Virus genome (UHGV): UHGV-0157529 | Strand: one strand, 5' to 3' | Origin: a virus | Length of the DNA: 46,733 nucleotides | Shown here: positions 1,969-44,896 of the stretch, one piece after another | How positions within the stretch are numbered: the stretch's first letter is position 1 | How the letters are laid out: each line of letters begins with the position of its first letter | Program-made: the position numbers and the translations under genes | The notes under the pieces: model-generated | The model's database searches: none | What the model saw: the letters and a program-made list of their open reading frames with translations, nothing else | Told to the model about the DNA's origin: nothing

Positions 1969-2021
1969 ATAGTTTCTAGGGGCGAGGCCCCGCCCCAACA
2001 GAGCAACCCGGAGATAGAGAG

Positions 2022-2912
2022 ATGAGCAAAGCAATCGTAGACAACAAGCTGGTGGAAGTGACTATGGTTAACGGCGGCTGGACCACCTACGTGGACCACA
2101 ACGGTGCAACCCGCAAAATCCGCAACAGCCAAGTGAACTCCACCCCCGCTGATGTGGCGGCGCTGGAAGCACTGGCCGAAGCTGGTGACACCAGTGCACA
2201 GGACAAGCTGATTGCGGCATCTGACAAAAACCACCCGGTGCTGGACCTCGACGCGACCTTCAAGTGCGACCGCTGCGAAACCGAATTCCTGTCGCAGGAG
2301 GCCCTCGATGAGCACATCGCCGAACACGACGCACCGAAGCCGCGCAGTTCGATGGTGATGCTGCTGACTGGCGGCAAGAAGTCGGCAGAGGTGCTGGAAC
2401 GCCGCGCCGCAGCGAAGGAGCAGAAACGCATCGAGGAAAACACCAAGAAGCCGCGTATCACCCGCTCCAACCTTGTTGCTGTTACCCGCTGCCCGGAGTG
2501 CGGCGGTGACGTGGCGCACCCTGACGACGGTTTGGCGAATTGCAAAGCGTGTGACTGGGAAGTGGATTTCACCGACAAAGAAGCGAAGATAGTGCCAGAT
2601 ATGACCCGCTACACCGTGGGCAAGGGTACGACTGTGACCGGGCGTAAAACCATCGACATCGACGACTACGTAGCCGACAAGCTGCGCGGTCTCGACCTCG
2701 AAGAGATTTACTCCTATACCGCAGCAGTGCTAGCCGAGCTGGGTGTCGAATACATAGGCACAGGCAGCAAGAAAATGCATTGCGGGCTGGGCGACCTGAA
2801 AGCCCGCTACAACCACCTGAACGTAGGGATGCAGCGTATGAACCTCGGAAACCTGCTCCGTGGCACGATGCGCCGTCTCGGAATGGAAACCCTGCCAGAG
2901 GTAGACGCATGA
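2022..2912 (+). CDS. early protein carrying a classical C2H2 zinc finger and a CxxC...CxxC zinc ribbon (putative nucleic-acid-binding regulator)
   Basis: FKCDRCETEFLSQEALDEHIAEH matches F-x-C-x2-C-x3-F-x5-L-x2-H-x3-H exactly. CPECGGDVAHPDDGLANCKAC is a zinc ribbon. First gene downstream of P1; GC3-rich. Confidence 0.7.
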   Translation: MSKAIVDNKLVEVTMVNGGWTTYVDHNGATRKIRNSQVNSTPADVAALEALAEAGDTSAQDKLIAASDKNHPVLDLDATFKCDRCETEFLSQEALDEHIAEHDAPKPRSSMVMLLTGGKKSAEVLERRAAAKEQKRIEENTKKPRITRSNLVAVTRCPECGGDVAHPDDGLANCKACDWEVDFTDKEAKIVPDMTRYTVGKGTTVTGRKTIDIDDYVADKLRGLDLEEIYSYTAAVLAELGVEYIGTGSKKMHCGLGDLKARYNHLNVGMQRMNLGNLLRGTMRRLGMETLPEVDA

Positions 2913-3238: not shown

Positions 3239-3267
3239 TTGACAGCGCCCCCAACTTATGATATAAT
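3239..3267 (+). promoter_or_regulatory. sigma70-type promoter cassette P2 (TTGACA-17-TGaTATAAT) plus GC-rich element and GGAGATATAGAGATG leader
   Basis: Consensus hexamers with 17-bp spacer; the spacer carries the shared CCCCCAACTTATG sequence. Confidence 0.7.
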
Positions 3268-3312
3268 AAAATTTCAGGGGGCGGGGGCCCTCGGCAAACC
3301 GGAGATATAGAG

Positions 3313-3570
3313 ATGAACACAGTAAACCTGCACGAAGTGATGACCGAGGATGGCGTCAGCACCGACGTCAATGCATGCGTGGGCCTCCGCCGCGTTGACG
3401 GAAAAGAGTGGCATCATGGTCGTCTGTTCACTGGCGGCTTCCAATGTGTAGGTGACGAGGAAGTCGGATACCACGATATCTACGTGAGCGCAGCGTCCCA
3501 AGCCGAGGACCTCATAGAAAAAATCAAAGCCCGTGGCGTGGTAGACCTGCGCCACTGGGACGAAATCTGA
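3313..3570 (+). CDS. hypothetical protein
   Basis: Start sits at the end of the conserved leader. Followed by a UUCG-tetraloop hairpin (3579-3594). Confidence 0.6.
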   Translation: MNTVNLHEVMTEDGVSTDVNACVGLRRVDGKEWHHGRLFTGGFQCVGDEEVGYHDIYVSAASQAEDLIEKIKARGVVDLRHWDEI

Positions 3571-3835: not shown

Positions 3836-4694
3836 GCAACACGAGTTAATCAAGGCCGTCACTGTGTACGGTCTCATGCAGTCGGTGAGCGAAATCCTGA
3901 ACGATCGCTTTACGTCCAATGGCCGCACCCTCAATGACAATAGCTGGCGCACCTGTAATGCGTACAGCCTCGAAGAGGGTTTCTGGAAGGCCGTACGCGA
4001 CCGCGATTTCGGGTCGGTGCTGACCTACTCCGCCATGCTGGCCGGGCGTGGCCGCAACGTGGCCGATTTAATCATGGATAGCATCGACACACTGTCAGAA
4101 AGAATCGGGAGAATGGAGACCGTAGCCGCCACCAACAGGGATACTATCCGTCTGCAGCGTACCACTATCGAGCAGCATGAAAAGACCATCGCCGACCTGC
4201 GGGCCAAGCTGGGCGGCGATACGGTATCTGCGCCGGGGCCTTATCAACACCTCGGGTGTGGGGTAGCCCTTGAGTCAGAGCGCATCCCAGAACTCTGCTA
4301 TTCGGTCGAGACCGTATGCGGTGAGCTGGTGGAGACCATCGTCATTCAGGGTGACCCGGCGGCGGTGAAAGATTTGGTGCAGGCCGTACGCGCAGAGCAT
4401 ACCACCTGCACGGGGCCGAGCGGCGACGTTAGCGTCACCTTGGATTCATTAAAGACGAAAGAAGACCCGATAATTGCCGGGACGGTGGCCGCTGCGGTGG
4501 CCGATATATACGGCAATAAGCGCATCGATCCTAAGGTAGAGATGGCCAAGGCGTGGCATGGTGGGGAATATGGTGCTGTGGTAAGCGCTATGGCAGCCCT
4601 CCACGACGCCGGGAAGGACCCTGTGGCGTTCATTAAGCGCATGAAGAACGTGGCAGTTCCGCCCGACAACGACGAAGCGGTACGACAGGCGTAA
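3828..4694 (+). CDS. hypothetical protein
   Basis: 288 aa; overlaps the previous stop. A bidirectional terminator follows. Confidence 0.6.
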   Translation: MTKQHELIKAVTVYGLMQSVSEILNDRFTSNGRTLNDNSWRTCNAYSLEEGFWKAVRDRDFGSVLTYSAMLAGRGRNVADLIMDSIDTLSERIGRMETVAATNRDTIRLQRTTIEQHEKTIADLRAKLGGDTVSAPGPYQHLGCGVALESERIPELCYSVETVCGELVETIVIQGDPAAVKDLVQAVRAEHTTCTGPSGDVSVTLDSLKTKEDPIIAGTVAAAVADIYGNKRIDPKVEMAKAWHGGEYGAVVSAMAALHDAGKDPVAFIKRMKNVAVPPDNDEAVRQA

Positions 4695-5204: not shown

Positions 5205-5233
5205 TTGACTCGGGCCCCAACCTGTAGTATAAT
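5205..5233 (+). promoter_or_regulatory. sigma70-type promoter cassette P3 (TTGACT-17-TATAAT) plus hairpin GGCCCCGCTGTGGGGCC and leader GGAGATACAGAGATG
   Basis: Hexamers with a 17-bp spacer. Confidence 0.65.
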
Positions 5234-5275
5234 GTACGTAAGGCCCCGCTGTGGGGCCAGTGCGGAGATACAGAG

Positions 5276-5644
5276 ATGAAAAGAATAACGGCAATATTGA
5301 TAGCATCGGCGGCTTTCATTGGGTGTTCATATGTAGGCGGTGCTAGCGCAAGAACCCTCCCGGACTGCGAAGCGATAGCTGCCAGCTACTTCGACAAGCA
5401 TCTTGGTGGCAAGTACGCCAGCATCCGGGACTTCATCGTAGACCAAGACGCGGAAGTATGTGGAATGGGGGCGACATTCAAAAAGAGCGGGGCGACCGAG
5501 GCCGAGGCCGCGAAGTTCCTCGACAAGGTGCGTGCTGCGGGTCTCGCGAAGGCGGTAACGAAGCGCGAGATGGACGAGACCGTCGAAGTGATTAACCGTA
5601 AAAGCGTGATGTTCATGGCCGGATTTAGGGGATACGTCGAATGA
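5276..5644 (+). CDS. secreted / lipoprotein-like early protein
   Basis: The N-terminus MKRITAILIASAAFIGCSYVGGASA looks like a signal peptide, with either a lipobox-like FIGC or an SPase I site ASA. Confidence 0.55.
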   Translation: MKRITAILIASAAFIGCSYVGGASARTLPDCEAIAASYFDKHLGGKYASIRDFIVDQDAEVCGMGATFKKSGATEAEAAKFLDKVRAAGLAKAVTKREMDETVEVINRKSVMFMAGFRGYVE

Positions 5645-6793: not shown

Positions 6794-7245
6794 TGGTAAC
6801 GATCGCCATCATCAAGGTGGTGTGCTATGGTCTAGCGCTTGGGGCGCTGCTCGTTATGGCGCTGCTGGGCCTGACCATGTTGGGCGGCACTCTGGCGCGG
6901 GGCTGGGACATCGTGGTCCAAAGGCTGGTGGTCGCCCTGCAAAAGCTCATCCCGCGCGACTGGGCCAAGGAAAAGCGAAAGGAGGGTATTGTCTTCTGCT
7001 CCGAGGTCTGGTACTATTTGCCAGTGGCCGCCCGGTGGATAACCCTCGACCGTTGGGGCCTAGTCCAGTGCTGGCAGGCTAAGCCGACGTACTGTCCTGA
7101 GGACGGTGAATGGTACAGCCACCAGCTAAACCCTCCACATGATGTGGGTAGTATGAGCGACGAATGGATGGCCCCCTATGCATGGCTGACTGAGCCGCCG
7201 ATACAGGCCCTGCCGGAAGACATCTATGAAATCGACGAAGCGTGA
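6793..7245 (+). CDS. membrane protein (alternative start at 6781)
   Basis: Hydrophobic N-terminal region VTIAIIKVVCYGLALGALLVMALLGLTMLGG. TAATG overlap with the previous gene. Confidence 0.45.
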   Translation: MVTIAIIKVVCYGLALGALLVMALLGLTMLGGTLARGWDIVVQRLVVALQKLIPRDWAKEKRKEGIVFCSEVWYYLPVAARWITLDRWGLVQCWQAKPTYCPEDGEWYSHQLNPPHDVGSMSDEWMAPYAWLTEPPIQALPEDIYEIDEA

Positions 7246-7552
7246 CGCACTCTTTAAACGTGCAGCCGCACCTAAACCAAAATTCGCCCGTGGGACGCGG
7301 GCATCCTTTCAGTCATGCATCGACCCGAACATCAACGGGACGGGGCTGGTGGTGGAAGCGAAATATTTCCCCAAGGACGGGCGTTTCCTTTACACCGTGG
7401 AGCGTGAGGTCGCCGGGTCGGTCCAGCGGTACACGTTCTTCGAGGAGGAGATGGCCAAACCGAGTGACCCTAACTTCAAGGACAGAAGACAAATAACGCT
7501 CGACCTGTGCGAGCACATCTACGACGATCATACCAGAGATTTAGAGATATGA
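7226..7552 (+). CDS. hypothetical protein
   Basis: 108-aa ORF. Confidence 0.45.
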   Translation: MKSTKRDALFKRAAAPKPKFARGTRASFQSCIDPNINGTGLVVEAKYFPKDGRFLYTVEREVAGSVQRYTFFEEEMAKPSDPNFKDRRQITLDLCEHIYDDHTRDLEI

Positions 7553-7752
7553 AACCTGAATACATCGCATATGGCATCTACGTCTACATGATTATTGGCT
7601 TTTGCTTGTGGCTATGGGCCTTTGTTGACGACGCTGTCACCGGGAACCGTCACCGTGGCGGCATAGTAGTGACTATCTCCACGCTGGTGGCCATGCTGCT
7701 AGGCTGGCCGTTCCTTGTGGCGGACCTGACGAAGTCACGGGGGCGAAGATGA
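7549..7752 (+). CDS. small membrane protein
   Basis: ATGA overlap with the previous gene and preceded by GAGATTTAGAGATATG. The translation MKPEYIAYGIYVYMIIGFCLWLWAFV is hydrophobic. Confidence 0.45.
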   Translation: MKPEYIAYGIYVYMIIGFCLWLWAFVDDAVTGNRHRGGIVVTISTLVAMLLGWPFLVADLTKSRGRR

Positions 7753-9075: not shown

Positions 9076-9434
9076 TGCAACGTCTTATGACCCTAATCGC
9101 AGAACTAACTACGTGGGAGGTGGCTTTTGGTATGGCATTCGCCCTGCTGCTGGCCATGTTCCTCGTACCTATGTATGTCCTGCACTGTACCGGGCGCAAT
9201 CTGCTCAATAGCAACGTCGGGCGCATCGCGCATCGTGAGTGGATGTTAGGCCATACGGTCATTATCTACAGCCGATGGCCGATATCCAAGGGCTGGCAAG
9301 GCTGCAGTGCCCGTAAGAAGACATCGCGATCGTGTATGCTGACTATGGGGACCGTGCAGATTGAGCTTATTCGCCTATGCCGTTCACAGGCCCCCATCTA
9401 CAGGGCAACGTACAACAACGCCAAGAAAGCTTGA
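9076..9434 (+). CDS. small membrane protein
   Basis: GGAGAG lies 6 nt upstream of the ATG. VAFGMAFALLLAMFLVPMYVL is a transmembrane segment. A degenerate promoter cassette lies upstream (TTGACA at 8997). Confidence 0.4.
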
Positions 9435-9459
9435 CCCGGTTGGGCCCGTGTGCTATACT
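9431..9459 (+). promoter_or_regulatory. sigma70-type promoter cassette P5 (TTGACC-17-TGcTATACT). The -10 element is bracketed by a GGGCCC...GGGCCC palindrome (9441-9466).
   Basis: Hexamers with a 17-bp spacer. Leader GAGATAAGAGATAAACAAGATG. Confidence 0.6.
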
Positions 9460-9491
9460 GGGCCCTCCTACTGAGATAAGAGATAAACAAG

Positions 9492-9872
9492 ATGAAAGCC
9501 AAGAAGATAAAAGATATCCATATCTTGCTGCGTAACGGTCGCTGGACAGCTGTATGGCAGGGTGAGGTTTGCCGCATCCAGAACGACAAGAGACGTCGCG
9601 CCCGTGTGGTCCGCCACGCTGATTCCCCCGAGCATGCTCTGGTATCCCTACTTGCCAGTGAGATATTAGAGCCTCAAAAAAGAGGCTACATGCTGGCACA
9701 CGCCGAGTTCATCGTATGGCTTGAGCAAAACGGCCTTATGTCCCTGCGCAGGGCGCTTCTGTTTGCTAAAGGCGACGGCTGGGACGGTCAGAGGAATCTG
9801 GAGGCTGTCAGGGTATATCGGGAATGGCGAAGGGAGCAAACGAGCGGTACTTCTCTTGGCCTCGTAGAATAG
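9492..9872 (+). CDS. hypothetical protein
   Basis: 126-aa ORF, followed by a terminator. Confidence 0.55.
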   Translation: MKAKKIKDIHILLRNGRWTAVWQGEVCRIQNDKRRRARVVRHADSPEHALVSLLASEILEPQKRGYMLAHAEFIVWLEQNGLMSLRRALLFAKGDGWDGQRNLEAVRVYREWRREQTSGTSLGLVE

Positions 9873-10457: not shown

Positions 10458-10714
10458 TGAGCAGACCTGTTTATAATGTAGTCGTCCAGACCGTGTGGCC
10501 GGACGGGTTCAAATCCGAGGTACGGGGCGATGCCATCACCACGACCCGTAAGACGCTGGAGGCCCTGCGCCGGGCGGGGGTCTACTACTACCAGCCAGTC
10601 CCTGCTGCACTGCGCGACGCGACGCAGAGGGTGGCCGCGCGGTATATCCCGGAGGCTACTATTGAAGCTGGTCTCGCCACCCTTAATGTCCGCTGTGCGA
10701 AGGAGGGCGTATGA
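10457..10714 (+). CDS. hypothetical protein (alternative start at 10454)
   Basis: GGGAGGGG SD; TGATG overlap with the previous gene. Confidence 0.45.
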   Translation: MSRPVYNVVVQTVWPDGFKSEVRGDAITTTRKTLEALRRAGVYYYQPVPAALRDATQRVAARYIPEATIEAGLATLNVRCAKEGV

Positions 10715-11034
10715 TACCTATGATTAAAGTAGTCCTGCTGGCTGGCCCGGCACTAATAGCCTCGTACACGGCGCACCCGACCCGCATCAAAGACCCACGG
10801 GGCGGCATCATGCAGGCACTAGAACTGGACCTGATGGACCTGCTCAACCTGTCGGACACGGCCTGTATCCCATCGGTAGTCCACCGCGACCTGACCGAGG
10901 CCATTAGTCGGGTGATTGACGGCGATAGCCCATCCCGTGAGCCTGCAGTCATCGGCCTGTCCCACCACGCGGGGCGACACCCGATGTACAAGGGCGGGGT
11001 GGCTCCGATATCGGTCCGGGTGGTCCGTTGCTAA
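10711..11034 (+). CDS. hypothetical protein with a hydrophobic N-terminus
   Basis: ATGA overlap with the previous gene. Confidence 0.45.
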   Translation: MIPMIKVVLLAGPALIASYTAHPTRIKDPRGGIMQALELDLMDLLNLSDTACIPSVVHRDLTEAISRVIDGDSPSREPAVIGLSHHAGRHPMYKGGVAPISVRVVRC

Positions 11035-11129
11035 ACGTGGGATTGACACCAGCCACACGGATGTGGTATCACGCGCGCGCTTATCACGTGTGTATGCGGA
11101 GCATTGTCGCCCGTCGACACATTCAATGT

Positions 11130-11400
11130 CGATGGAACGGTGGAACGGTGGAACGGTACATAGTACGAACTGCCGTGGACTCTCTCTCTGTCCCCGGAGG
11201 ACGGGGTCTCCGGTTCTCACGTGTGAAAAGAGAGCCGTTCCATGGGCCGTTCCACCGGTGCTAGGTTGGGGTGGAACGGTGGCCCCAACTACGCACGACG
11301 ACCCGGTGCCGCACAATCCCCTCTTTGGGTGTCCGGGAACGTTCCCGGCGTTCCACGTTCCACGCCCCAATCCCCATCTGTTCCGCCATCTGTTCCATCG
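11130..11400. repeat. iteron cluster A: about 10 copies of TGGAACGG / CCGTTCCA in both orientations (three perfect tandem copies at 11133-11156), a GGGAACGTTCCC palindrome (11335-11346) and GTTCCAC GTTCCAC
   Basis: Read directly from the sequence. A diverged copy occurs at 35538-35640. Confidence 0.7.
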
Positions 11401-11422
11401 CTGTGGTACGTGCAAAAGATAC

Positions 11423-11451
11423 TTGACAGCCGCCCCAACTTATGGTATAAT
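11423..11451 (+). promoter_or_regulatory. sigma70-type promoter cassette P6 (TTGACA-17-TGgTATAAT) plus hairpin GGTGGCAACAGGCCACC and leader GGAGATTAGAGATG
   Basis: Full consensus hexamers with extended -10 and an A-rich upstream region. Confidence 0.75.
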
Positions 11452-11498
11452 AAAGTCTCTGGTGGCAACAGGCCACCGAGCAACAGCGGAGATTAGAG

Positions 11499-11720
11499 AT
11501 GAAGACACACAAGACCAAGATGACCTGCACCGCATCCACTAACCCTAACCTGTTCGCAGTAGGCCAGAAGTACGAGGCCGAGGGAAACGCGACCGACGGC
11601 GGGTATATCAAGTGCCGCATCGGGATGGAGCACCGCATCACCCCGACTCACACTATCACGCAGTCGTTGTACGTCCATACTTCCGGTGCTGACCGTTTCA
11701 TCTTCCAGATTAAGGGCTGA
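11499..11720 (+). CDS. hypothetical protein
   Basis: First gene downstream of P6. Confidence 0.55.
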   Translation: MKTHKTKMTCTASTNPNLFAVGQKYEAEGNATDGGYIKCRIGMEHRITPTHTITQSLYVHTSGADRFIFQIKG

Positions 11721-11723
11721 GCG

Positions 11724-12434
11724 ATGGACCTGAACAAAGTAAAAGAGCGCATCGCCAAGCTGCTGGCGATGGCCGAGAACAACGGCAACGAACACGAGGC
11801 CGCCCAAGCGGCGGCCCGCGCCCGTAAGCTGATGGACCAGTACCAGCTAGACCACATGGACGTGGAGCAGGCCGCCTCTGACTTCGGGTATGAATATGCT
11901 GGCGAGTCCTACGCGTTCCAGCCCCGATGGAAAGGATGGCTGGCCACCGCTGTGGCTAAGTTCAACGATTGCCAATGCCGCCTTGTCAGAGTGCCCGGTG
12001 ACGGCCCCCGCAAGCGCTGGCGCACCCGCTGGGAGGGCTACGCAGAAGACGTGACCCTGTGTTTGGCGATGTTCGAGTATTTTACTGCCGTCATCGAGAC
12101 CGCTACGTCCAAAGACCAGTTATGTCGCGGATATAAAAGATATAACGCACGGGTAGGGACCATCTTCAAGGAATATATGGTGACCACCCTCACCCGGCGT
12201 CTGAGTGAGCTGATGGACCAGCGCAAGGCCGAGACCCCAGTGACATCGACGGGCACAGGGCTGGCCGTGTACAAGGCCAATCAGGTGGCGGCCCAGTTCG
12301 GCGAGGCCACCTATAAGCAGCAGAAGTCCAAAGCGGTGGACGACATGACCACCGAAGAGAAACACGCCGCCCTGCGTGGTATTCAGGAGGGCAAAGCGGT
12401 TCACATCAACGCACTGGGGGATAATCATGAGTAA
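11724..12434 (+). CDS. hypothetical protein with an N-terminal DUF2786-like motif
   Basis: KERIAKLLAMAENNGNEHEAAQAAARARKLM resembles the DUF2786 N-terminal helix. Confidence 0.5.
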   Translation: MDLNKVKERIAKLLAMAENNGNEHEAAQAAARARKLMDQYQLDHMDVEQAASDFGYEYAGESYAFQPRWKGWLATAVAKFNDCQCRLVRVPGDGPRKRWRTRWEGYAEDVTLCLAMFEYFTAVIETATSKDQLCRGYKRYNARVGTIFKEYMVTTLTRRLSELMDQRKAETPVTSTGTGLAVYKANQVAAQFGEATYKQQKSKAVDDMTTEEKHAALRGIQEGKAVHINALGDNHE

Positions 12435-12687: not shown

Positions 12688-12716
12688 TTGACGGGCCCCC
12701 CAACTTATGGTATAAT
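12688..12716 (+). promoter_or_regulatory. sigma70-type promoter cassette P7 (TTGACG-17-TGgTATAAT) plus hairpin and leader GGAGATACAGAGATG
   Basis: About 90% identical over roughly 100 bp to cassette P8. Confidence 0.7.
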
Positions 12717-12759
12717 AAACATATAGGGGCAAGGGGCCCCTCCCAGCGGAGATACAGAG

Positions 12760-13002
12760 ATGAAAGCAATTTGCACACTTACCAAATCAACAATGATGCG
12801 CGGCGGATTTCTGGCTAACGATTCGAATATGGAACTTTTCGCGACCTGCGCAAAAATAGCCAGATCGGAACATGATGCGGATAGGGGGATGTATAGAATC
12901 TGCTTCACTCGTGGGTTGCTTCAGGGGAAAACAGCGTATGCAAAGGACTTTGAAGAACTGAACGTAAAATGTTCCCAGGTCGCTATAGATTTTTTTAACT
13001 AA
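12760..13002 (+). CDS. low-GC moron gene, hypothetical protein (80 aa)
   Basis: Visibly AT-rich (about 43% GC) against a GC-rich background. Flanked by the duplicated P7 and P8 cassettes. Confidence 0.55.
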   Translation: MKAICTLTKSTMMRGGFLANDSNMELFATCAKIARSEHDADRGMYRICFTRGLLQGKTAYAKDFEELNVKCSQVAIDFFN

Positions 13003-13082
13003 CCATCATACCCCACCAGCGCGGGGCCAATAAGTAGGTGCAAAGTCACCGCTGTGGCCCTGTATCTCGTATAACAAAATAC

Positions 13083-13111
13083 TTGACAGGCCCCCCAACT
13101 TATGGTATAAT
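13083..13111 (+). promoter_or_regulatory. sigma70-type promoter cassette P8 (TTGACA-17-TGgTATAAT) plus hairpin and leader GGAGATTAGAGACATG
   Basis: Near-duplicate of P7. Confidence 0.75.
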
Positions 13112-13155
13112 AAACATATAGAGGCAAGGGGCCTCTCCCAGCGGAGATTAGAGAC

Positions 13156-13401
13156 ATGGCACAGTATATCGGCAAATGCACCAAGGCGGAATTCGTAGAA
13201 GGCAATGCGCATCTGGGAGTCCAGAACATTGAACGTCTGGTAGCTCGTTGCGAGGCATTCACCAACCCTGAAGGTGCTCTGTTCATGGCCGGTATGGCAT
13301 ACGACAACGTCTCCGACATGGACAACGACGCAGAGGTCATCGAAAACATGGACAGCATAATCGATAGCCTCGTGAATGCGTTCGGCTTTGAACTGAAGTA
13401 A
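13156..13401 (+). CDS. hypothetical acidic protein
   Basis: 81-aa ORF. Confidence 0.55.
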   Translation: MAQYIGKCTKAEFVEGNAHLGVQNIERLVARCEAFTNPEGALFMAGMAYDNVSDMDNDAEVIENMDSIIDSLVNAFGFELK

Positions 13402-13412
13402 GGAGATTAGAG

Positions 13413-13814
13413 ATGAAAATGACCTACATCGGCATGAACAACGGCAGCATCAAAGAAGCACATCGTCTGCAGGCGGCCCTGCGCGAAACCCGCGACATGC
13501 TCGAAGACTCATACACGGTGGGCAACTATATTGCGGTACGCGAGCTGCACCGCATCGAGCGCGAAGAACTGGCATCCCTCCGCATGGTCATGCGCTGCGA
13601 TGCGGTCCACGCGACCGCCCTGCCGCAGGATGGGCAGCATTCCTACCACTGGCACAAGGCAATGCGCCCGGCCCGTCAGGCATACGTGGCCCAATGTCAG
13701 AGCGCCCGCCCGGCAGCCGACCAGAACGACGAAGAGAATGAGACCCAGCAACACCAAGCATGGCTCATCGAGCAGGGCCACGACTACGCGGTATTCGGTG
13801 GGGTGATTCTGTGA
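13413..13814 (+). CDS. hypothetical protein
   Basis: Preceded by AAGGAGATTAGAGATG, the leader motif without a promoter. Confidence 0.55.
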   Translation: MKMTYIGMNNGSIKEAHRLQAALRETRDMLEDSYTVGNYIAVRELHRIEREELASLRMVMRCDAVHATALPQDGQHSYHWHKAMRPARQAYVAQCQSARPAADQNDEENETQQHQAWLIEQGHDYAVFGGVIL

Positions 13815-23973: not shown

Positions 23974-24389
23974 GGCAACACGACCTAACTGAATCGACGC
24001 TGCGCGCCCATTGGGTGGCGGGAGCGTTCGGCCTGCCCACGGCATATGAAAATCAGGCATTTAGCAAGCCAGACGATGCGCCGTGGGCGGCTCTTTGGTA
24101 CGTCCCGGCAGACACCCAGCCCGTGACCGCAGGCTCACGAGGACAGGATGAGGTGGTCGGCTTTTTGCAAATCGACCTCAACTATCCGTTGAACAAAGGC
24201 ACAGGCGACACCCGAGAGATGGCCGACAAAATCGCAGACCACTTCCCTGTCGGGCATCCTTTGGTTTATAATGGCTTCGTCGTCAAGCCGACTTATGTAC
24301 ACCGGGGCCAAGGCCGTGAGGTCGATGGCTGGTGGCGGACCCCAATAACTATTGGGTGGTATTCACGACTCAATCGCTTAGGAGCATAA
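23970..24389 (+). CDS. tail terminator protein
   Basis: Sits immediately upstream of the major tail gene. Confidence 0.45.
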   Translation: MRQHDLTESTLRAHWVAGAFGLPTAYENQAFSKPDDAPWAALWYVPADTQPVTAGSRGQDEVVGFLQIDLNYPLNKGTGDTREMADKIADHFPVGHPLVYNGFVVKPTYVHRGQGREVDGWWRTPITIGWYSRLNRLGA

Positions 24390-32212: not shown

Positions 32213-34441
32213 ATGACCGTCATAAGTGGTGTTTTAGTAAACGGGTTTGGCCAACCTATGGCCAACACCCAAATGAGGGCCGTGGCTGCCGAAACGGGAA
32301 CTGCTATTGTAGGGGCCCCCGCTTATGCCAGAACGGACAATAACGGGGCTTATTCTTTTCCCCTAGAAGTCGGTGTGTACTCATTTAGTATATGGTTTGG
32401 CCACCTAGAATGGCAGTATGTGGGGGACATACAGATATTAGAGGGGACCCCGGATTCATCACTCGACCAGCTTCTTGTGATATCTCCGAACACTAAGCCG
32501 ATGGTGCTGGCGAGAGTTTTACAAGCATTGCTGGATGCGGAGGCGGCGGCGGCGAATGCGGCGAATGCCGCCAATCAGGCCGCCGAAGAAGTTAGAGATT
32601 CCCTTACTCCTTTGGGTCTACAATACAAGGATGAGGCGTCAGCCCAAGCAGCCGTAACCGCTGGCGCTATCTCCGATGGGGCCTTTTTCTACGTGAGAAG
32701 TCAGGACAGCTACTCTTTGGCTGATGAGTACCGGAACGTTGGAGGAACGGTCAGCAAGACTGGTAGGCAGATTAACAGCAAGGAATACGTGACGCTAGTC
32801 CAAGAACAGGTGAAATCTGTGGACTCCCGCACAGACGGCCTTAAAACCGTGAAACTGGTAGACGATGTTCTGTTCTTTCTAGCGAAAAACGGGCCGGTTG
32901 TGAGCGTCGACAGTACAGGGCTAGTTCGGGCAATCGAACTAATCGTTCAGAAGCTGAAAGCGGATGATTTCGAGGTCCTGAACTTTCTAGCCACGATTAT
33001 CAAGGCGCAACAGCTTGAAATTGGTGGAAGCACATTATCATCCAGTGCGTTTCCCCTATCCGTAGATGCAAACAACGGCAGCGTTTTGGTTTTAGATGGA
33101 ACCGGTCGGCTGCTGGGTATCGAGCTGGACTTTGAGCAGATTAGGCTTAATGGCGTCGATATTCTGGACATCATTAACGGCCTGACGCCCGCTGAGGTTA
33201 AACGGCTCAAAATGAAGTTCATCACCGGATATAGCCACTTCGCGTTCTATGGGCAATCGCAGGTAATAGGGACCAGTAACGGGACCATCCATTCCACATC
33301 ATTTGACCCGGACAGCCTGATGCTATATGGCGGGTTAAAGTCGTTTGGTACACCGGGATATAACACCTCCGTGCCGGAGTCCGAATACAATAAAGCGCTG
33401 CGCCCAATGTATGAGGTAAACGGCGAGTCATATTGTTCAGGGATGGCCATCACCGCACGTCAATATATCAGTGGTAAGTACCCGAACCGTGATGTAAAAA
33501 ACATCTACACGGTCAACGGCACTGGTGGGTCAACTGTTGATATGCTCAAAAAGGGAACCTCGTCCTACAACCGAATGATTACGCAGCACGTCGCCCTCAT
33601 TAACCTACTAAGCAGCATGGGTGAGGCATACCACTTTCCTGCGTTTGGTTGGTCGCAAGGCGGTAGTGATGATAATGCTGGCACTAACCCCGATGTGTGG
33701 GAGGCAGCAGTAGACAAACTACGCGCGGACTACAACGCTGACATCTTCGCCCAGACAGGCGTGAAAATTGATCCGGCATGGATAACCAATCAAATCAACA
33801 ACTACATGCGTTACCCGGCTTTGAACGGAAAACCGAATATCGGTCTGCGTCAGTATAAGATGGTCACGAACGGTGAAGGAAAATACTTCGGCTCGTGTCC
33901 GACCTATATCTGTGACTTTATTGACGTCGCGCACTGGACAAAAGAGTCTCAGGTAAAGGTTGGGGCATATTTCGAAAAGACGCGGCGCTTCATTCTGGAA
34001 GAAGGGTACTGGGAGCCTGTACACCCTATCCGCATCACTACTGCAGGGAAATTCAGCACAGTGCAGTTTCATCTTCCGCAGAACCGTCCTCTGCAATTCA
34101 ACACCGTGTTCGTTGCCGAAGCCACGAACTACGGGTTCAGCGCCGCGCAAGCTGATGGTACACCTATCGCCATCGATCGCGTTCGACTCGTTTCCGACGA
34201 CACAATTGAGGTTCGATATACCGATGTCCCTCTACCGGGAGCGGTGCTGATGTATGGCCAGACAGGGCAAGTCGGTGATCCTAACGCGTCGGATGGCTCC
34301 GGGTTAGGCCGTACTAACGGTATGCGCGGAAATCTCTGTGATACAGCCGGAGACGACGAAAAGATTTATATTTCAGCTAGTGAACCCGAATATCCGCTGC
34401 ATAACTGGTGCTGGATGTTCACAGAAGACATGGGGGTATAA
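32213..34441 (+). CDS. tail fibre / tailspike protein with a possible SASA/SGNH-type carbohydrate esterase domain
   Basis: 742 aa. FAFYGQSQVIGTSNG resembles the GQSN motif of sialate-O-acetylesterase-like (SASA) domains. GC content is lower than in the neighbouring genes. Confidence 0.55.
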   Translation: MTVISGVLVNGFGQPMANTQMRAVAAETGTAIVGAPAYARTDNNGAYSFPLEVGVYSFSIWFGHLEWQYVGDIQILEGTPDSSLDQLLVISPNTKPMVLARVLQALLDAEAAAANAANAANQAAEEVRDSLTPLGLQYKDEASAQAAVTAGAISDGAFFYVRSQDSYSLADEYRNVGGTVSKTGRQINSKEYVTLVQEQVKSVDSRTDGLKTVKLVDDVLFFLAKNGPVVSVDSTGLVRAIELIVQKLKADDFEVLNFLATIIKAQQLEIGGSTLSSSAFPLSVDANNGSVLVLDGTGRLLGIELDFEQIRLNGVDILDIINGLTPAEVKRLKMKFITGYSHFAFYGQSQVIGTSNGTIHSTSFDPDSLMLYGGLKSFGTPGYNTSVPESEYNKALRPMYEVNGESYCSGMAITARQYISGKYPNRDVKNIYTVNGTGGSTVDMLKKGTSSYNRMITQHVALINLLSSMGEAYHFPAFGWSQGGSDDNAGTNPDVWEAAVDKLRADYNADIFAQTGVKIDPAWITNQINNYMRYPALNGKPNIGLRQYKMVTNGEGKYFGSCPTYICDFIDVAHWTKESQVKVGAYFEKTRRFILEEGYWEPVHPIRITTAGKFSTVQFHLPQNRPLQFNTVFVAEATNYGFSAAQADGTPIAIDRVRLVSDDTIEVRYTDVPLPGAVLMYGQTGQVGDPNASDGSGLGRTNGMRGNLCDTAGDDEKIYISASEPEYPLHNWCWMFTEDMGV

Positions 34442-34442: not shown

Positions 34443-35231
34443 ATGAGCGGACTGGGGCTAAAATTAAATTTTAATTCAACGCGTATATTGCCTAATATTG
34501 AACTAAAGCATGTAAAGCAATCTGATATGACCTATCTGGGAGTATATGGGGGAACAACGGAGGATACAGTTCTTAATAGATCTAAGGGGGATTTGGTAAC
34601 TCCCACAGTCGGGCAAACAACTCAAAACTGGGTACTTGGGGATAATTACTTATCTTCATCTGCAGACAATCTGTCTGCAGGGATTATTTCTACCGGGCAG
34701 CCTAAGCAACTAGACTGTACATTATTCTCCGTTTTTAATTTACAAGATATCCCTAATACTCCGGGGGTTCTATCTAGTGTAGGTATCCTATCCCTATGGG
34801 GGAATAGTCCAAACCTATCAGGGAATCCAGGACGATTGTCTTTATCTGCAATAATTACAGCCGAGGGGGACAGGTATATTGGAGTACGCTGGGGAACAAA
34901 TGCGGATGTTCCTGCACTATCTTGTGCTGTTCCCTTTGATTGGCGTGGTTTAAGTGAGCCTATTTATGCGATATGCTCAAGAAAGGATTCGGGGGTGCTA
35001 GCTCTAGAAGTTCATTCAGGAGCCACGGTATTAAAACAGACATCTGTAGTAACACCAGTTCCTATCCCTGCAGGATCTACAAACTGGCGAATGTATTCGG
35101 GCCAGCTAAGTACATATCCCATTAGCGGATTGCGTACATACGCAGCGGCTGCTTGGAAAAGTCATTTATCTGCTGAGGAATTGTCCAGTGAATTGGAAAT
35201 TATGAAAATAAATTTATCTTCACATTTCTAA
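34443..35231 (+). CDS. distal tail fibre / receptor-binding module, low-GC
   Basis: Ser/Thr/Gly-rich, beta-type composition. Markedly AT-rich (about 42% GC). Start codon lies 1 nt after the upstream stop. Confidence 0.5.
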   Translation: MSGLGLKLNFNSTRILPNIELKHVKQSDMTYLGVYGGTTEDTVLNRSKGDLVTPTVGQTTQNWVLGDNYLSSSADNLSAGIISTGQPKQLDCTLFSVFNLQDIPNTPGVLSSVGILSLWGNSPNLSGNPGRLSLSAIITAEGDRYIGVRWGTNADVPALSCAVPFDWRGLSEPIYAICSRKDSGVLALEVHSGATVLKQTSVVTPVPIPAGSTNWRMYSGQLSTYPISGLRTYAAAAWKSHLSAEELSSELEIMKINLSSHF

Positions 35232-35384
35232 TTTAAAACTGGTTATCACTAATTATAAATAAGGCAGCTACGGGTGCAAGTGCCCTGTAAAGGATATGAT
35301 GCCGTTCGTCCTATCGACAAGGAACATCGCAGTGCCGTAGTCCGTCAAACGAGAAGTACCTCTCCGGCCCTCCGACAGGGGGGC

Positions 35385-35438
35385 CGCTACGTATATAGCC
35401 CCCGACAACTCCGATTCAACGGAGAGGCTCCCGTTTGC
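35385..35438 (+). repeat. about 50-bp repeat (TACGTATATAGC...GATTCAACGGAGAGGCTCCCGTTT), second copy of the terminator-containing element at 9878-9930
   Basis: A 24-nt perfect match GATTCAACGGAGAGGCTCCCGTTT at 9904-9927 and 35413-35436, plus flanking similarity. Confidence 0.6.
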
Positions 35439-35537
35439 TAAATGCGCATGACGGTCGGCTGCACTAAAGATTCTGTTCTGCTGTTCTCGTATCGTACGCG
35501 AGAGCCGAGGATTGTCGCCGGGCGACAGATATGATAC

Positions 35538-35640
35538 GATGGAACGGTGGAACGATGGAACGGCACAGTTCGAAGCCCCGGAGGACGCGGCACTGAGCGT
35601 TCCACTATGCGTTCCATCACCGCTGGTTTCATGGAACGGT
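35538..35640. repeat. iteron cluster B: TGGAACGG TGGAACGA TGGAACGG in tandem (35540-35563), then CGTTCCA x2 and TGGAACGG, followed by a long imperfect hairpin at 35658-35695
   Basis: Read directly. Homologous to cluster A, including the shared CTCTCTCTGTC and CCCCGGAGGACG segments. Lies 90-240 bp upstream of the primase-polymerase gene. Confidence 0.7.
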
Positions 35641-35780
35641 AGATAGATAGGACTGCCGGGGCCCCTCTCTCTGTCGATGGGCGACAGAGAGGGCCCATCC
35701 CCGCGCGTGAAAGAGGACTGGTGCCGGGCAACGTGCCGTGATATACTAACGGTGAGATATAGAGATAACGAGGACCAAAC

Positions 35781-37337
35781 GTGGAAGAGAAGAACATACT
35801 ACGATTCGCGCAGCTGTTTCGTGGGAACGAACGCTCATTCGGGCAGTTCACGCCCAACGCACCGAGTTCGCGCCACAGTATCACCGTGAAGGAGGCGTAC
35901 ACCTTCGATCATTACGTGAACCACCTCGACGGCAAGAAGGGCCTCGGTCTAGTGCCCATCATGGACGACGGATTCTGTTGGTTCGGGGCTATAGATATCG
36001 ACGCGCATGGTGACGCCGAGGATATCGACCTTATCGAGCTAGAGAGGCTGGTACGCGAACTCGACTACCCGTTGACTGTGTGCCGCTCCAAGTCAGGCGG
36101 TGCCCACCTCTACCTGTTCGGCAACGAGCCGCTCCGGGCGACTGTGGTGCGTAAGGTGCTGGCCAAATGGGCGGTGCAGCTAGGGCACGGCGGGTGCGAG
36201 ATATTCCCGAAGCAGGACGTGTTGCCCATCGAAAAGGACACGGGCGAGCAGCAACTAGGCAACTGGTTGAATTTGTGCTGGTTCGATGCCGAGAACCCCG
36301 AGTGTCTACGCTACACCGTGGAGGGCGGAAAGCAGGTAGACTTCGAGCATTTCCTCGATATCGCTGAATCACGCCGCATCACCCCGGCCATGCTGGTGGA
36401 GAAGGGCGACGGCGAGCATCAGGAGGCCCCGCCGTGCATCCAGCGCATGATAGCTGACGGCGTCGGCAAGGGCCACCGCAACGAAGCCATGTACAACATG
36501 GTCATCTACCTCAAACAGGCTTTCCCGGAGACCTACCGTGACCGGGCGTTCGACATGAATGGGCGTATCTTCACCGAGCCGATGAGCCACGCCGAAGCCA
36601 AAAAGGTCATCAACAGTGCCTCCCGTCGCGACTACCGATACAAGTGCAAGGAAGAACCCTGTAAGAGCCTGTGCCGCTCGTTCGAGTGCGTGACCCGTAA
36701 GTATGGCATCACACCGGAGGAGAAAGGCGAGCTTGAGATGGGTAAGCCGCCAGCGTTCGGACCACTGGAAAAGTACATGACCACGCCCGTGCGGTGGGTG
36801 CTGTACGTGGACGAGGTCCGGCTCAACCTGACCACCCAACAGCTGATGGACTTCAAGGCTATCCGTGAGGCCGTCGCCGACAACCTGACCCGCCTGATAC
36901 CGCCGATGAAGAACGATCGCTGGCAGGTGATATTGCATGGGCTTATGCAGGATGCCAAGTTAATCGAGGCTCCGGAGGAGGCCACACAGGAGGGCGCACT
37001 GTGGTCCCGACTGCAGAGCTTCCTTGCCAAGGCGGACCTCGATTCCAAGGGCGACGACCCCGAGGACCGCGACGCGCTCGCGTACGGGACACCAGTGGTG
37101 CAGATTAAGGACGACAGGCGTGTGGTCTACTTCCGTGGCCAAGACTTCCTCGAATACCTCAAGAAGAACCGCGCCGATGAGTTCAAGGGTTCGGCGGTAT
37201 GGGTGGCCCTCAAGCAGAAAGGGTGCGAGCACACCAAGCTACGCGTCAACAAGATGCCCCTCAATGTATGGTACGTGTCGGTCGATGACCTGACCCGTGT
37301 AGAGATTAAAGCTAAAGAAGTAAGGAGTGAATTCTGA
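35781..37337 (+). CDS. bifunctional primase-polymerase (AEP Prim-Pol domain plus PriCT-1 domain); GTG start
   Basis: IDIDAH and SKSGGAHLYLF match the AEP motifs, and GKGHRNEAMYNMVIYL matches PriCT-1. Confidence 0.8.
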   Translation: MEEKNILRFAQLFRGNERSFGQFTPNAPSSRHSITVKEAYTFDHYVNHLDGKKGLGLVPIMDDGFCWFGAIDIDAHGDAEDIDLIELERLVRELDYPLTVCRSKSGGAHLYLFGNEPLRATVVRKVLAKWAVQLGHGGCEIFPKQDVLPIEKDTGEQQLGNWLNLCWFDAENPECLRYTVEGGKQVDFEHFLDIAESRRITPAMLVEKGDGEHQEAPPCIQRMIADGVGKGHRNEAMYNMVIYLKQAFPETYRDRAFDMNGRIFTEPMSHAEAKKVINSASRRDYRYKCKEEPCKSLCRSFECVTRKYGITPEEKGELEMGKPPAFGPLEKYMTTPVRWVLYVDEVRLNLTTQQLMDFKAIREAVADNLTRLIPPMKNDRWQVILHGLMQDAKLIEAPEEATQEGALWSRLQSFLAKADLDSKGDDPEDRDALAYGTPVVQIKDDRRVVYFRGQDFLEYLKKNRADEFKGSAVWVALKQKGCEHTKLRVNKMPLNVWYVSVDDLTRVEIKAKEVRSEF

Positions 37338-39172
37338 TGTGGGACTTCGCCGTCAAACCGCGCCCCGGTGCGTACATGAATGTAACGATGAACGATAACA
37401 CCGGACGCATGCATATCGAGGCGTCCATCTCGTATAACGACCTAATCCGGGCTTTCCCTAACCGCAAGTTCGAGAAACGCCGCAGCATATGGGTAGTACC
37501 CATTATCCGCCGCAACGCCGAACACTTGCTCAACAACTGCAAGGGAAAGCCGGGCGTCAACATCGCCGAGGATGTAGAGGACCACTGCCGTCAGGTCATC
37601 GAGTCGGCCACCATCACCCGCCGTGAGGTGCTGCCTACGTGGTATGAGTTCAAAACAGAGCCGTTCCCGTTCCAGCGCGACGCGCTCGATTTCGCGTGGT
37701 CATCGCCGCTGGTGGCGTTCTTCATGGAGATGGGGACCGGGAAGTCCAAGACCCTCATCGACCTCGCCTGCGCCAGATTCAAGGCCCGGCTCATTAACGC
37801 CCTCATAGTCTACTGCCCGGTGCCGCTCCGGTCCAACTGGGTGGCCGAATTCGGCATCCATGGCTCGGTCCCGTATGAGACGTTCGTCTGCGACACGACC
37901 ATGAGCGGCTTCGAGAAGAAGGTAAAGGCGTTCAACGACGCTGACTTTGGGTATAACAAGCTTAAGGTATTCATCGTCGGCATCGAGTCATTCAGTCAGG
38001 GCATGAGTAAGGGCAAGGCGTTCGGGGCCACCATGCAATTTGCCCGATCGCATCAGGCCATGCAAGCGGTGGATGAATCCCACAAGATTAAAGGCCACGA
38101 CGCATCACGTGCTATCAACGTCGAGGTGCTGGGCCGCGAGGCCAAGTATAAGGCCATCATGTCCGGGTCTCCGGTGTCGCTAGGGCCCACCGACCTATAT
38201 CAGCAGTTCCAGTTCCTTTCCCCGGACATCATCGGTCTAGGCGACTTCTATAGTTTCCAAGCCCGGTATTGTGAGAAGGGCGGGTTCCAGAACAAGCAGA
38301 CGGTAGGGTATCAGAACATCGATGAGCTGATGGAGATAATTAAGCCGTTCGTGTTCCAAGTCAAGAAGGAAGACGTATTGACCGACCTCCCGGCCAAGAT
38401 GTTCACCAAGGTAGAGGTAGAACTTACCAAGGAGCAGAAGGACTTATACGCCCAAATCAAGAAAGAGCGCTGCGCCGACCTATCAAAACTGCTGGCCTCC
38501 CGCAACGGGGCCATTACTGAGTCGTTCATCGAGCTGGTCTGCGAGAATGTGCTGGCCGCATATACCGCCCTGCAGCAGATTTGTGCCGGGTATGTGTCCT
38601 ATTGGGAGCTTGACGACCCGGAGGACGAGAACAGCAAGCGTCACCGTGAGCGAGTGCGTGTCATCGAGCCCGAGAAGAACCCGAAGATTGCCTATCTGCT
38701 GGAGTTCATCGAGGAGAACAAGGGCCACCCGCTTATCATCTGGGCCAAGTTCCGCCCGGAGATAGCCGACATCGTGGAGGCGCTCACTGCCCGGTACGGG
38801 GAGGACATGGTCTGCCAGTATCACGGGGGTCTCAACCCGGCGGAGCGAGACGAGCAAAAGGCCAAGTTCCTCAACACCGATGCCCAGTTCTTTGTCTCCA
38901 ACCAGCAGACCGGGGGCACGGGCCTGACCCTGAACAAGGCAAGCCGCACGTTCTATATGTCTAACAGTTTCATTCTGGTGGACCGTATGCAGTCGGAAGA
39001 CCGAAACCACCGAATCGGCCAGAAAAACTCCGTTCTGTATGCTGATGTGGTGGCCAAGGGTACGGTAGACGAGACCATCCTGCAAGCCATCCGCGATAAG
39101 AAGGACCTCGCGGCATATGTGCGGGATTGTATGGAGCGCTCCCCTGCTGAACTGTTGGCGCTGTTGGGATAG
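37337..39172 (+). CDS. SF2 helicase (SNF2/DEAD-DEAH box family)
   Basis: MEMGTGKSKT (motif I), DESHKIK (motif II) and QSEDRNHRIGQ (motif VI). Confidence 0.8.
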   Translation: MWDFAVKPRPGAYMNVTMNDNTGRMHIEASISYNDLIRAFPNRKFEKRRSIWVVPIIRRNAEHLLNNCKGKPGVNIAEDVEDHCRQVIESATITRREVLPTWYEFKTEPFPFQRDALDFAWSSPLVAFFMEMGTGKSKTLIDLACARFKARLINALIVYCPVPLRSNWVAEFGIHGSVPYETFVCDTTMSGFEKKVKAFNDADFGYNKLKVFIVGIESFSQGMSKGKAFGATMQFARSHQAMQAVDESHKIKGHDASRAINVEVLGREAKYKAIMSGSPVSLGPTDLYQQFQFLSPDIIGLGDFYSFQARYCEKGGFQNKQTVGYQNIDELMEIIKPFVFQVKKEDVLTDLPAKMFTKVEVELTKEQKDLYAQIKKERCADLSKLLASRNGAITESFIELVCENVLAAYTALQQICAGYVSYWELDDPEDENSKRHRERVRVIEPEKNPKIAYLLEFIEENKGHPLIIWAKFRPEIADIVEALTARYGEDMVCQYHGGLNPAERDEQKAKFLNTDAQFFVSNQQTGGTGLTLNKASRTFYMSNSFILVDRMQSEDRNHRIGQKNSVLYADVVAKGTVDETILQAIRDKKDLAAYVRDCMERSPAELLALLG

Positions 39173-39198
39173 ACAACGGGGGCCCGGTGTGATATACT
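39170..39198 (+). promoter_or_regulatory. promoter cassette P10 (TAGACA-17-TGaTATACT). The -10 is bracketed by the GGGCCC...GGGCCC palindrome (39182-39205); leader CAGGAGATAAGAGATG.
   Basis: Same architecture as P5. Confidence 0.55.
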
Positions 39199-39225
39199 GG
39201 GCCCCTACAATACAGGAGATAAGAG

Positions 39226-39603
39226 ATGACCGATAAACAGCCTAAAGTTTTCGTCGTACAGGAAAACCCGAACCTCAACTACACACCTGCTGAGCGCTAC
39301 GGCGAGGTTGTTTTTCTGACAGCCATCGAATTCAGCCCGATGAAGAACAGCCCACGCAACGCGGCAGTGCTGGAGACCGTCGAGGCGGCAATGAAGCGTT
39401 TCGACCCGAGCAAGGACTACCTCCTGCTGTCGGGCAACCCTATCATCATGGGTTATGTGTTCCACCTCGCCATGACCAAGGCCACAGAGGTCCGTGTGCT
39501 GTGGTGGTCCCGCGATGACCGCAAATACACCGAGGTCCTGTTCAACCCGGACTTCATCAAATCGGTCGGTATCCCGGCCATCCCCGTGACATACAAAAAG
39601 TGA
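39226..39603 (+). CDS. hypothetical protein
   Basis: First gene downstream of P10. Confidence 0.55.
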   Translation: MTDKQPKVFVVQENPNLNYTPAERYGEVVFLTAIEFSPMKNSPRNAAVLETVEAAMKRFDPSKDYLLLSGNPIIMGYVFHLAMTKATEVRVLWWSRDDRKYTEVLFNPDFIKSVGIPAIPVTYKK

Positions 39604-39611
39604 GATTAGAG

Positions 39612-40524: not shown

Positions 40525-40623
40525 TGCTGGTGGGGGCCTTGTAGGGGCCCCCTAAAAATACCCTACTAGAATCGTGAATCAAGAACCACCCCCCGTGCAA
40601 TCGCACTAATCAATAGATGAGAG

Positions 40624-41394: not shown

Positions 41395-41464
41395 GGCAGT
41401 ACCAGCGGGACTAATGACCCCCTTCGGCCCCGGAAACGGGGCCGCTACTTAAGAGAGATACAAT

Positions 41465-44820: not shown

Positions 44821-44834
44821 GCAAAAAGGGCCCC

Positions 44835-44864: not shown

Positions 44865-44896
44865 ATTCCTTTACAGCACGAACCGGAGATAGAGAG

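Follow-up and report, generated by a model that had tools for sequence, protein, structure and literature searches.

In the virus genome UHGV-0157529 (46,733 bases, analysed as a whole and called the window below), a short leader motif built of two GAGAT units and usually fused to the start codon precedes 13 of about 68 genes. In the best reading of the data, this motif is a standardised, unstructured translation-initiation module, which stands at the 3' end of promoter-hairpin cassettes resembling the promoter-early stem-loop (PeSL) cassettes of T4-type phages. The motif is real and under selection, and it is a translation-initiation region (TIR) standardised throughout a small clade of enterobacterial siphophages. 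It is a variant of the known phage promoter and ribosome-binding site (RBS) cassettes and no new kind of system. That ribosome accessibility, together with cassette recombination, is the whole story was given a probability of about 0.6.

In a preliminary description of this DNA, the motif had been written as the consensus GGAGATWNAGAGATG. This consensus gave five exact matches in the window (2010, 3301, 5264, 12748 and 44885), all on the plus strand, and none in 100 shuffles; the remaining sites that had been listed were either a 14-nt form lacking the N, such as GGAGAT[TA]AGAGATG at 11488, 13402 and 39215, or differed from the consensus by one or two bases. A tandem of the form GAGAT-N1-3-GAGAT describes the motif better. 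It was matched 12 times, always on the plus strand, for a chance expectation of 0.19 ± 0.46, and beyond these exact tandems a GAGAC variant was found at 13143 and weak variants at 40624 and 41465. With 13 genes bearing the tandem and two more bearing a weak variant, the initial count of at least 12 genes was fair; the tandem-repeat nature of the motif and its role at gene-exchange junctions had been missed. Eleven of the 13 copies are fused to ATG, as GAGATG or as GAGAT-ATG/GAGAC-ATG, and two are detached from the start codon, lying 8 nt (9473) and 14 nt (35754) upstream of it. On the minus strand, no tandem and a single AGAGATG word were present; an antisense partner or small RNA was rejected, as the complement of the motif is missing from the genome. 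Two more AGAGATG words lie inside genes (4538-4544 and 24215-24221), with the ATG in frame in both. The word at 4538 comes after AAGGT and is a possible internal start; the homologous gene of Klebsiella phage vB_Kpn_K21lambda1 (K21lambda1) is shorter.

The position of the motif was examined relative to about 68 plus-strand genes, curated by means of a self-trained coding score and inspection of the start candidates. The enrichment at start codons supposed in the preliminary description was confirmed: all 12 tandems were located at most 35 nt upstream of a curated start, against 34 of the 218 GGAG words. Such zones cover about 5% of the strand, which gives P of about 3e-16 for 12 of 12 tandems. 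Furthermore, the coding sequence starts annotated independently by the pipelines of other groups match all 12 copies in K21lambda1 and all 14 in Salmonella phage PMBT28, and the genes behind the motif have homologues or Pfam matches. The starts at 2022, 3313, 5276, 7549, 11499, 12760, 13156, 13413, 39226, 39612 and 44897, before which the same leader had been reported, are all plausible as real starts. The reported variants were also recovered, as complete tandems (9473 and 35754) upstream of the starts at 9492 and 35781 and as degenerate or single-unit forms at 40624 and 41465.

The motif is closely associated with promoters. Each of the nine plus-strand sites scoring at least 10/12 for the sigma-70 consensus has a motif-bearing start 28-54 nt downstream. 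A tenth promoter, an extended -10 at 35739, also has a motif copy downstream; the gene driven by another extended -10 promoter, at 40180, has a different RBS. The copies at 7549, 13413 and 39612 have no promoter, as had been stated, and each lies on or adjoins the stop codon of the upstream gene. In agreement with the first description, the motif does not depend on a particular promoter cassette: two types of promoter precede it, and at three junctions it has none. The structural/late module (14240-35231) contains no copy at all. From the association with promoters, the stop-codon junctions and the absence from the late module, it was therefore concluded that the motif signals the start of those early/middle cistrons that lie next to a promoter, and of a few cistrons at re-initiation junctions. 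A sigma-70 pause element or a -10-like element was rejected, since the distance between motif and promoter is variable.

The window belongs to the PMBT28/K21lambda1 clade, and its early region is 82-90% identical to that of the Klebsiella phages K21lambda1 and VLCpiS6a, 'Pseudomonas' phage PSA28 and Salmonella phage PMBT28. By its capsid protein, the next relative is Providencia phage Kokobel2 (71% identity; GC content of Kokobel2, 47.5%). When the motif was searched in these phages, 12-14 copies were found in each of the four close relatives, about eight in Kokobel2 and eight in 21 kb of a metagenomic relative, L250 (81% PurZ identity). Virtually all of these copies are on the coding strand, and the single reverse-strand match to the search pattern, in PMBT28, is not a motif copy. 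At orthologous sites, the mean pairwise identity was 0.69 in the leader (-34 to -16), 0.86 in the motif and 0.965 at positions -4 to -1. Within the window, AGAG at -4 to -1 is invariant in nine of nine fused copies and orthologues keep both units, so that conservation indeed extends, as first proposed, well beyond a GGAG Shine-Dalgarno (SD) sequence.

The pattern of divergence around the two units was followed at individual sites. The leader of the single-stranded DNA-binding protein (SSB) gene reads GGAGAT-AGA-GAGATG in the window, GGAGAT-AC-GAGATG in PMBT28 and GGAGAT-TCA-GAGATG in Kokobel2; here and at the 7549 site, the spacer varies in length and sequence and both GAGAT units stay. At the 7549 junction, where the tandem lies in coding sequence, the C-terminus of the upstream protein is RDLEI or REIEI among the relatives and the tandem is unchanged. 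In the Kokobel2 orthologue of gene 39226, the motif is kept and the leader around it has diverged. The orthologous sites of the 9492 leader read GAGATAAGAGAT-TAAAAT-ATG. Since the units are kept while spacer and leader diverge, this comparison of sequences argues for selection on both GAGAT units at the nucleotide level, with a free spacer.

Outside this group, the next structural relatives (Serratia phage ZDD2, Stenotrophomonas phage AXL3 and Salmonella phage SE2) gave zero to one match, at chance level. A motif shared with the next structural relatives was rejected, and T7 has no tandem either. A trait of diaminopurine (PurZ) phages was rejected likewise: two other PurZ contigs (50% and 44% PurZ identity) are devoid of the motif, and the relative with 81% identity has eight copies. 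The motif is specific to the clade and not to diaminopurine genomes.

Next, the physical properties of the leaders were predicted. GGAG ends 7-8 nt before ATG, and the predicted duplex energies of the motif leaders with the 3' tail of 16S rRNA (GAUCACCUCCUUA) range from -2.9 to -9.2 kcal/mol. The predicted SD:anti-SD mean is -6.1 kcal/mol for motif leaders and -7.5 kcal/mol for the other 55 genes, which is not significantly different (p = 0.22), and an unusually strong SD was rejected because these energies are no stronger than those of other genes. The translational enhancer of the preliminary description therefore stands as a translation-initiation element, but not in the sense of a stronger pairing with rRNA. 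By contrast, the region from -15 to +3 is easier to open in motif leaders, with a predicted median of 3.0 against 4.2 kcal/mol (one-sided Mann-Whitney p = 0.0007), and when the predicted leaders are folded to minimum free energy, they form the 5' G/C hairpin and leave the motif, almost devoid of C, mostly unpaired. According to these models, a lower structure is what distinguishes motif leaders. The ordinary SDs of this genome are likewise purine-rich, complementary to the 16S 3' tail and placed 7-8 nt before the start; they differ in having diverse spacers, no AGAG next to the start codon, a similar or stronger pairing and a higher predicted local structure. The second codon begins with A in 77% of motif genes and in 55% of the others. 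The idea that the second unit serves as the SD of a downstream in-frame start was rejected as a general explanation, a nearby second ATG being present only at 13413 and 40624.

In the relatives, identical promoter-hairpin-motif cassettes precede non-homologous open reading frames (ORFs). At the 11499 locus, the ORF of 73 aa is replaced by unrelated ORFs of 96 aa or 59 aa, and at 12760 the ORF of 80 aa corresponds to an unrelated ORF of 56 aa behind the same cassette; at 5276, 122 aa in the window face a non-homologous ORF of 103 aa in PMBT28 and PSA28, again with the same cassette. The BLAST breakpoints fall at the ATG: homology stops at 11500-11503 and restarts at 11721-11724, stops again at 12763 to restart at 13399, just 5' of the motif copy at 13402, and for PSA28 stops at 5280. 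In VLCpiS6a, a deletion spans exactly 7552 to 7749. In these alignments, the motif marks the exact junction at which genes are swapped between relatives. The cassettes at 12688 and 13083 both match the same single cassette of K21lambda1. In the window they form a tandem duplicate (12688-13158) in which each promoter-hairpin-leader cassette is followed by a unique small ORF (80 aa and 81 aa), where the relatives have one cassette and a 56-aa ORF.

This organisation recalls the PeSL cassettes of T4-type phages (Arbiol et al. 2010, PMC2839356; Comeau et al. 2014, PMC4122927), which consist of a sigma-70 promoter, a GGGG..CCCC stem-loop and, at the 3' end, an SD and ATG, and whose crossovers were located to the interval from the -10 to the SD (PMC2839356). 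Both kinds of cassette are repeated intergenic elements with a strong sigma-70-like promoter, such a stem-loop and an SD plus start codon at the 3' extremity, are clustered among small ORFan early genes and bound gene insertions, deletions and replacements between relatives. However, the present cassettes occur in a clade of 47-kb siphophages and not in the hyperplastic regions of T4-like myovirus genomes, and their TIR is far more stereotyped (tandem GAGAU fused to AUG) and is also found without promoter and hairpin. A terminator/attenuator activity of the stem-loop, mini-circles from recombination between cassettes and actual crossovers were demonstrated for T4-type phages (PMC2839356); for the phage studied here, the likeness is one of sequence. 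The cassette probably functions as a PeSL does, without belonging to the T4-type set.

In the window, the long leaders are predicted to begin with a GGGGC..GCCCC hairpin, and at 44827-44848 a GGGCCCC/GGGGCCC hairpin carries the -35 hexamer in its loop. The cassettes at 1940-2009, 3239-3300, 5205-5263, 11423-11487, 12688-12747, 13083-13142 and 44827-44884 keep more than sigma-70 needs, namely a -35/-10 spacer of the form GCCCCAAC(C/T)(T/G)TATGG and the GGGGC..GCCCC hairpin 3' of the -10. These PeSL-like features, the conserved spacer and the hairpins, are kept in Kokobel2 too.

A second point of comparison is T7. The T7 gene 10 TIR (GGAGATATACATATG in the T7 record) is identical to positions 3301-3315 of the window at 12 of 15 bases and has the same 8-nt spacing. 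More generally, GGAGAT-type SDs followed by an A/T-rich spacer are found in T7 (L253) at 6475, 9158, 13927 and 22967, in the first cistron after phi1.3, phi2.5, phi4.7 and phi10. The GGAGAU SD, the spacing, the A/U/purine spacer and the promoter-proximal use thus parallel the present phage, but T7 has no second GAGAU and no tandem anywhere in its genome, and its leader is not uniform across many genes. The activity of the T7 gene 10 TIR in expression vectors is well established. The T7 epsilon enhancer, UUAACUUUA, was not found in the window and was rejected as an explanation.

Beyond phages of this clade, the isolated 15-mer and 14-mer each occur in at least 120 unrelated contigs of IMG/VR and, among the matches listed, 74% (15-mer) and 56% (14-mer) open an ORF of at least 40 aa. 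One 65%-GC viral contig, IMGVR_UViG_3300038330_000056 (L025), shares no detectable protein with the window and carries GGAGATAGAGATG at no fewer than six gene starts, on both strands. Its leader has the form GGAGATAGAG(AG)ATG, for example at 4185 and 4732 on the plus strand and at 766, 8855, 9877 and 10539 on the minus strand, and some copies follow extended -10-like TGnTA..T words. L025 is an independent lineage with the same style of leader. The use of this leader in L025, the likeness to T7 gene 10 and the ORF starts in IMG/VR favour a reading of the motif by the host translation machinery.

The following scheme would account for these results. The first unit, (G)GAGAU, lies 7-8 nt before AUG, in the normal SD position, and is predicted to pair moderately with the 3' tail of 16S rRNA; it is followed by a nearly C-free A/G/U spacer ending in a second GAGAU fused to AUG, with a second codon that usually begins with A. 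Any ORF placed behind the motif would in this way receive an unstructured, ribosome-accessible start. By these properties, the motif may drive ribosome binding and initiation and raise or standardise translation. The cistrons served would be the 5'-proximal ones of early/middle sigma-70-type transcripts and those of the three stop/start re-initiation junctions. The uniformity of the motif would result from two joint forces: both GAGAU units would be under purifying selection, and the cassettes would recombine with one another. It is precisely at the 3' edge of the motif that ORFan genes are acquired, lost or substituted. The motif may also assist recombination.

Several observations weigh against this scheme. 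The standard SD model explains neither the invariant AGAG at -4 to -1 nor the need for a second GAGAU, and AGAG is no general preference of the genome, GAG at -3 to -1 occurring in one of the 55 non-motif genes (the degenerate variant at 40624). The copies at 9473 and 35754 are not fused to a start, and the tandem of the primase leader coexists with a separate SD, so that start-codon context is not the whole story. Late genes with high expression, the capsid gene among them, are devoid of the motif, which is consequently not simply the strongest RBS. Finally, the accessibility and duplex energies are predictions, and selection for low structure alone would not impose the same sequence at each site.

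An alternative is that a post-transcriptional regulator, whether repressor, activator or endoribonuclease, recognises the tandem GAGAU (GGAGAUAGAGAGAUG) and controls all early/middle promoter-proximal cistrons; it could be peculiar to the clade or borrowed from the host. We consider this unlikely, and slightly less likely still the more explicit version in which a factor, be it an early phage protein or a host protein or RNase, reads the GAGAU units and switches the translation or stability of every such cistron. Two conserved units with a free spacer of 1-3 nt are typical of protein recognition, and the conservation is greater than rRNA pairing requires. The confinement of the motif to early/middle genes, with none in the late module, fits a regulator as well, and most early proteins have no known function. 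The tandem of the primase leader, away from the start codon, is conserved in four relatives and in L250; it was not seen, however, at the primase gene of Kokobel2. Moreover, a Pfam scan of 40 early/middle proteins (E <= 0.01) returned neither RegA (Translat_reg) nor RegB (REGB_T4), and no match to a family annotated as RNA-binding passed the Pfam cut-off of that family. L025 repeatedly uses the same leader, and the near-identical T7 gene 10 TIR works on host ribosomes alone. The RegA-like regulator or endoribonuclease put forward in the preliminary description thus found no support, and L025 points instead to the host ribosome.

The targets of T4 RegB and the operators of RegA do share with the motif the character of a short conserved element overlapping the SD and/or the AUG of many early mRNAs and limited to one temporal gene class, and GGAG is present in 9 of the 13 copies described here. 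They differ in that neither protein has a homologue among those scanned, that GGAG is absent from 4 of 13 copies and that, for the present phage, the resemblance is one of sequence. RegA sites are A/U-rich and not tandem. Among other candidate factors, CsrA recognises pairs of GGA and Hfq recognises ARN repeats; the second unit of the motif has no GGA, and no ARN register is maintained. Were a factor nevertheless at work, the phage would possess a RegA/RegB-like regulon with no sequence relation to the T4 proteins, and binding of this factor, rather than contact with the ribosome, would explain the invariant AGAG at -4 to -1 and the tandem at the 5' end of the primase mRNA. A known RNA family was rejected, as Rfam gave no match at the gathering threshold over the whole window. 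The literature searches returned no paper describing the motif, and the PMBT28 genome announcement is silent on it.

A somewhat more doubtful explanation is that the extended identity is historical. The leaders would be paralogous copies of one cassette, spread by duplication and homogenised by recombination or gene conversion, GGAG alone being functional. The cassettes are indeed paralogous and cross-match in BLAST, one of them exists as the tandem duplicate at 12688 and 13083, exchange junctions lie at the motif and the PeSLs provide a precedent. Common ancestry accounts poorly, however, for a motif that is nearly invariant within cassettes whose hairpin-to-motif segment is variable, nor for its presence behind two promoter types and at three sites without a cassette. 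One of the latter lies in coding sequence, where the peptide is altered and the tandem is not, and in Kokobel2 the motif survives where the surrounding leader is unalignable. Highly improbable, lastly, is an action at the DNA level, as a transcription-factor operator or as the target of a recombinase or nuclease moving gene cassettes: the motif is made of direct repeats and gene-swap junctions abut it, with a second copy at the 3' junction of the swapped segment at 13399, but the motif keeps a fixed distance to ATG and a variable one, of about 0 to 40 nt, to the promoter, it is always oriented like the mRNA, the 3' junctions of most swapped segments (11721 and 7749, for example) are free of it and the early proteins scanned gave no recombinase or HNH match.

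Table 1. Copies and variants of the tandem motif in the window, with the genes that follow them and their promoters.
Sequence	Position	Strand	Gene started	Promoter	Remarks
GGAGATAGAGAGATG	2010-2024	+	2022-2912 (296 aa)	1940-1968 (12/12), 46 nt upstream (54 nt to start codon)	Exact consensus match, tandem fused to ATG; kept in four relatives
GGAGATATAGAGATG	3301-3315	+	3313-3570 (gp30.8-like)	3239-3267	12/15 identical to T7 gene 10 TIR
GGAGATACAGAGATG	5264-5278	+	5276-5644	5205-5233	
AGAGATTTAGAGAT-ATG	7535-7551	+	7549-7752	none	Within last codons of gene 7226-7552 (ATGA overlap)
TGAGATAAGAGAT-AAACAAG-ATG	9472-9494	+	9492-9872	9431-9459	Tandem shifted one unit upstream; second GAGAT in SD position
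GGAGATTAGAGATG	11488-11501	+	11499-11720 (ORFan, 73 aa)	11423-11451	
GGAGATACAGAGATG	12748-12762	+	12760-13002 (ORFan, 80 aa)	12688-12716	
GGAGATTAGAGAC-ATG	13143-13158	+	13156-13401 (ORFan, 81 aa)	13083-13111 (12/12)	Variant leader; tandemly duplicated cassette
GGAGATTAGAGATG	13402-13415	+	13413-13814	none	Directly 3' of TAA stop of upstream gene
TGATATACT	35739-35747			Extended -10	Primase promoter
TGAGATATAGAGAT	35753-35783	+	Primase, GTG start 35781	35739-35747	Predicted 5' end of primase mRNA, then the gene's own GAGG SD
GGAGATAAGAGATG	39215-39228	+	39226-39603 (Pam3 gp32-like)	39170-39198	
TGAGATTAGAGATG	39601-39614	+	39612-40142 (DUF7307)	none	First bases are TGA stop of upstream gene (TGAGAT)
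TAGATGAGAGATG	40614-40626	+	40624-41394 (Pam3 gp34-like)		Degenerate copy, first unit TAGAT
AGAGATACAATATG	41454-41467	+	41465-42940 (helicase)		Single-unit variant; GAGAT is the SD
GGAGATAGAGAGATG	44885-44899	+	44897-45223 (SSB)	44835-44864	

Besides the tandem, the leaders contain a second recurring word, GAGCAAC, with 13 copies on the plus strand and none on the minus strand (at 2001, 3820, 11478, 14229, 40231, 45266 and seven other positions). Six of these belong to 5' leaders, where they precede the tandem motif or form the spacer of RBSs of the GGAGCAAC(A/C)CC-ATG type. Upstream of the primase gene, a 550-nt non-coding stretch (35231-35781) contains iteron-like repeats and several longer inverted repeats. 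The iteron-like sequence ATGGAACG has direct copies at 35539-35564 and 35631, and the inverted form CGTTCCATC is found at 35610; this stretch is a candidate replication origin or regulatory region. Another gap, of about 390 nt (11034-11423), separates gene 10711-11034 from the promoter at 11423 and has no confidently coding ORF, an 84-aa ORF at 11242-11496 having scored poorly.

The window is an essentially complete siphophage genome with every gene on the plus strand. The ORF at 46461-46733 leaves the end of the window and re-enters at 1-612, for a total of 885 nt, the same as K21lambda1 32964-33848, which indicates that the genome is complete and circularly permuted. With its neighbours 45276-46448 and 609-1211, this ORF belongs to a group annotated in the relatives as PurZ-like adenylosuccinate synthetase (45276-46448), HD-domain DatZ-like dATPase (46461-46733 joined to 1-612) and MazZ-like gene (609-1211). 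Judging from these genes, adenine is presumably replaced by 2-aminoadenine (Z) in the DNA of the clade, and PMBT28 has featured in papers on dZ-modified DNA. If Z does replace adenine, near-perfect sigma-70 promoters would be read from Z-containing DNA.

If the motif is a standardised initiation module carried by promoter-hairpin cassettes, PeSL-style 'plug-and-play' cassettes would not be confined to T4-type phages. Their TIR would here be standardised to near identity, so that any ORF placed at the ATG gets expressed, and this would help to account for the clean turnover of ORFan early genes in small siphophages. For the annotation of these phages, the motif is an accurate marker of start codons and operon starts. 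As a compact RBS with moderate pairing and low structure, it may be of use in enterobacterial expression constructs. Furthermore, the invariant second GAGAU raises the question of which features other than SD pairing are recognised immediately before a bacterial start codon.

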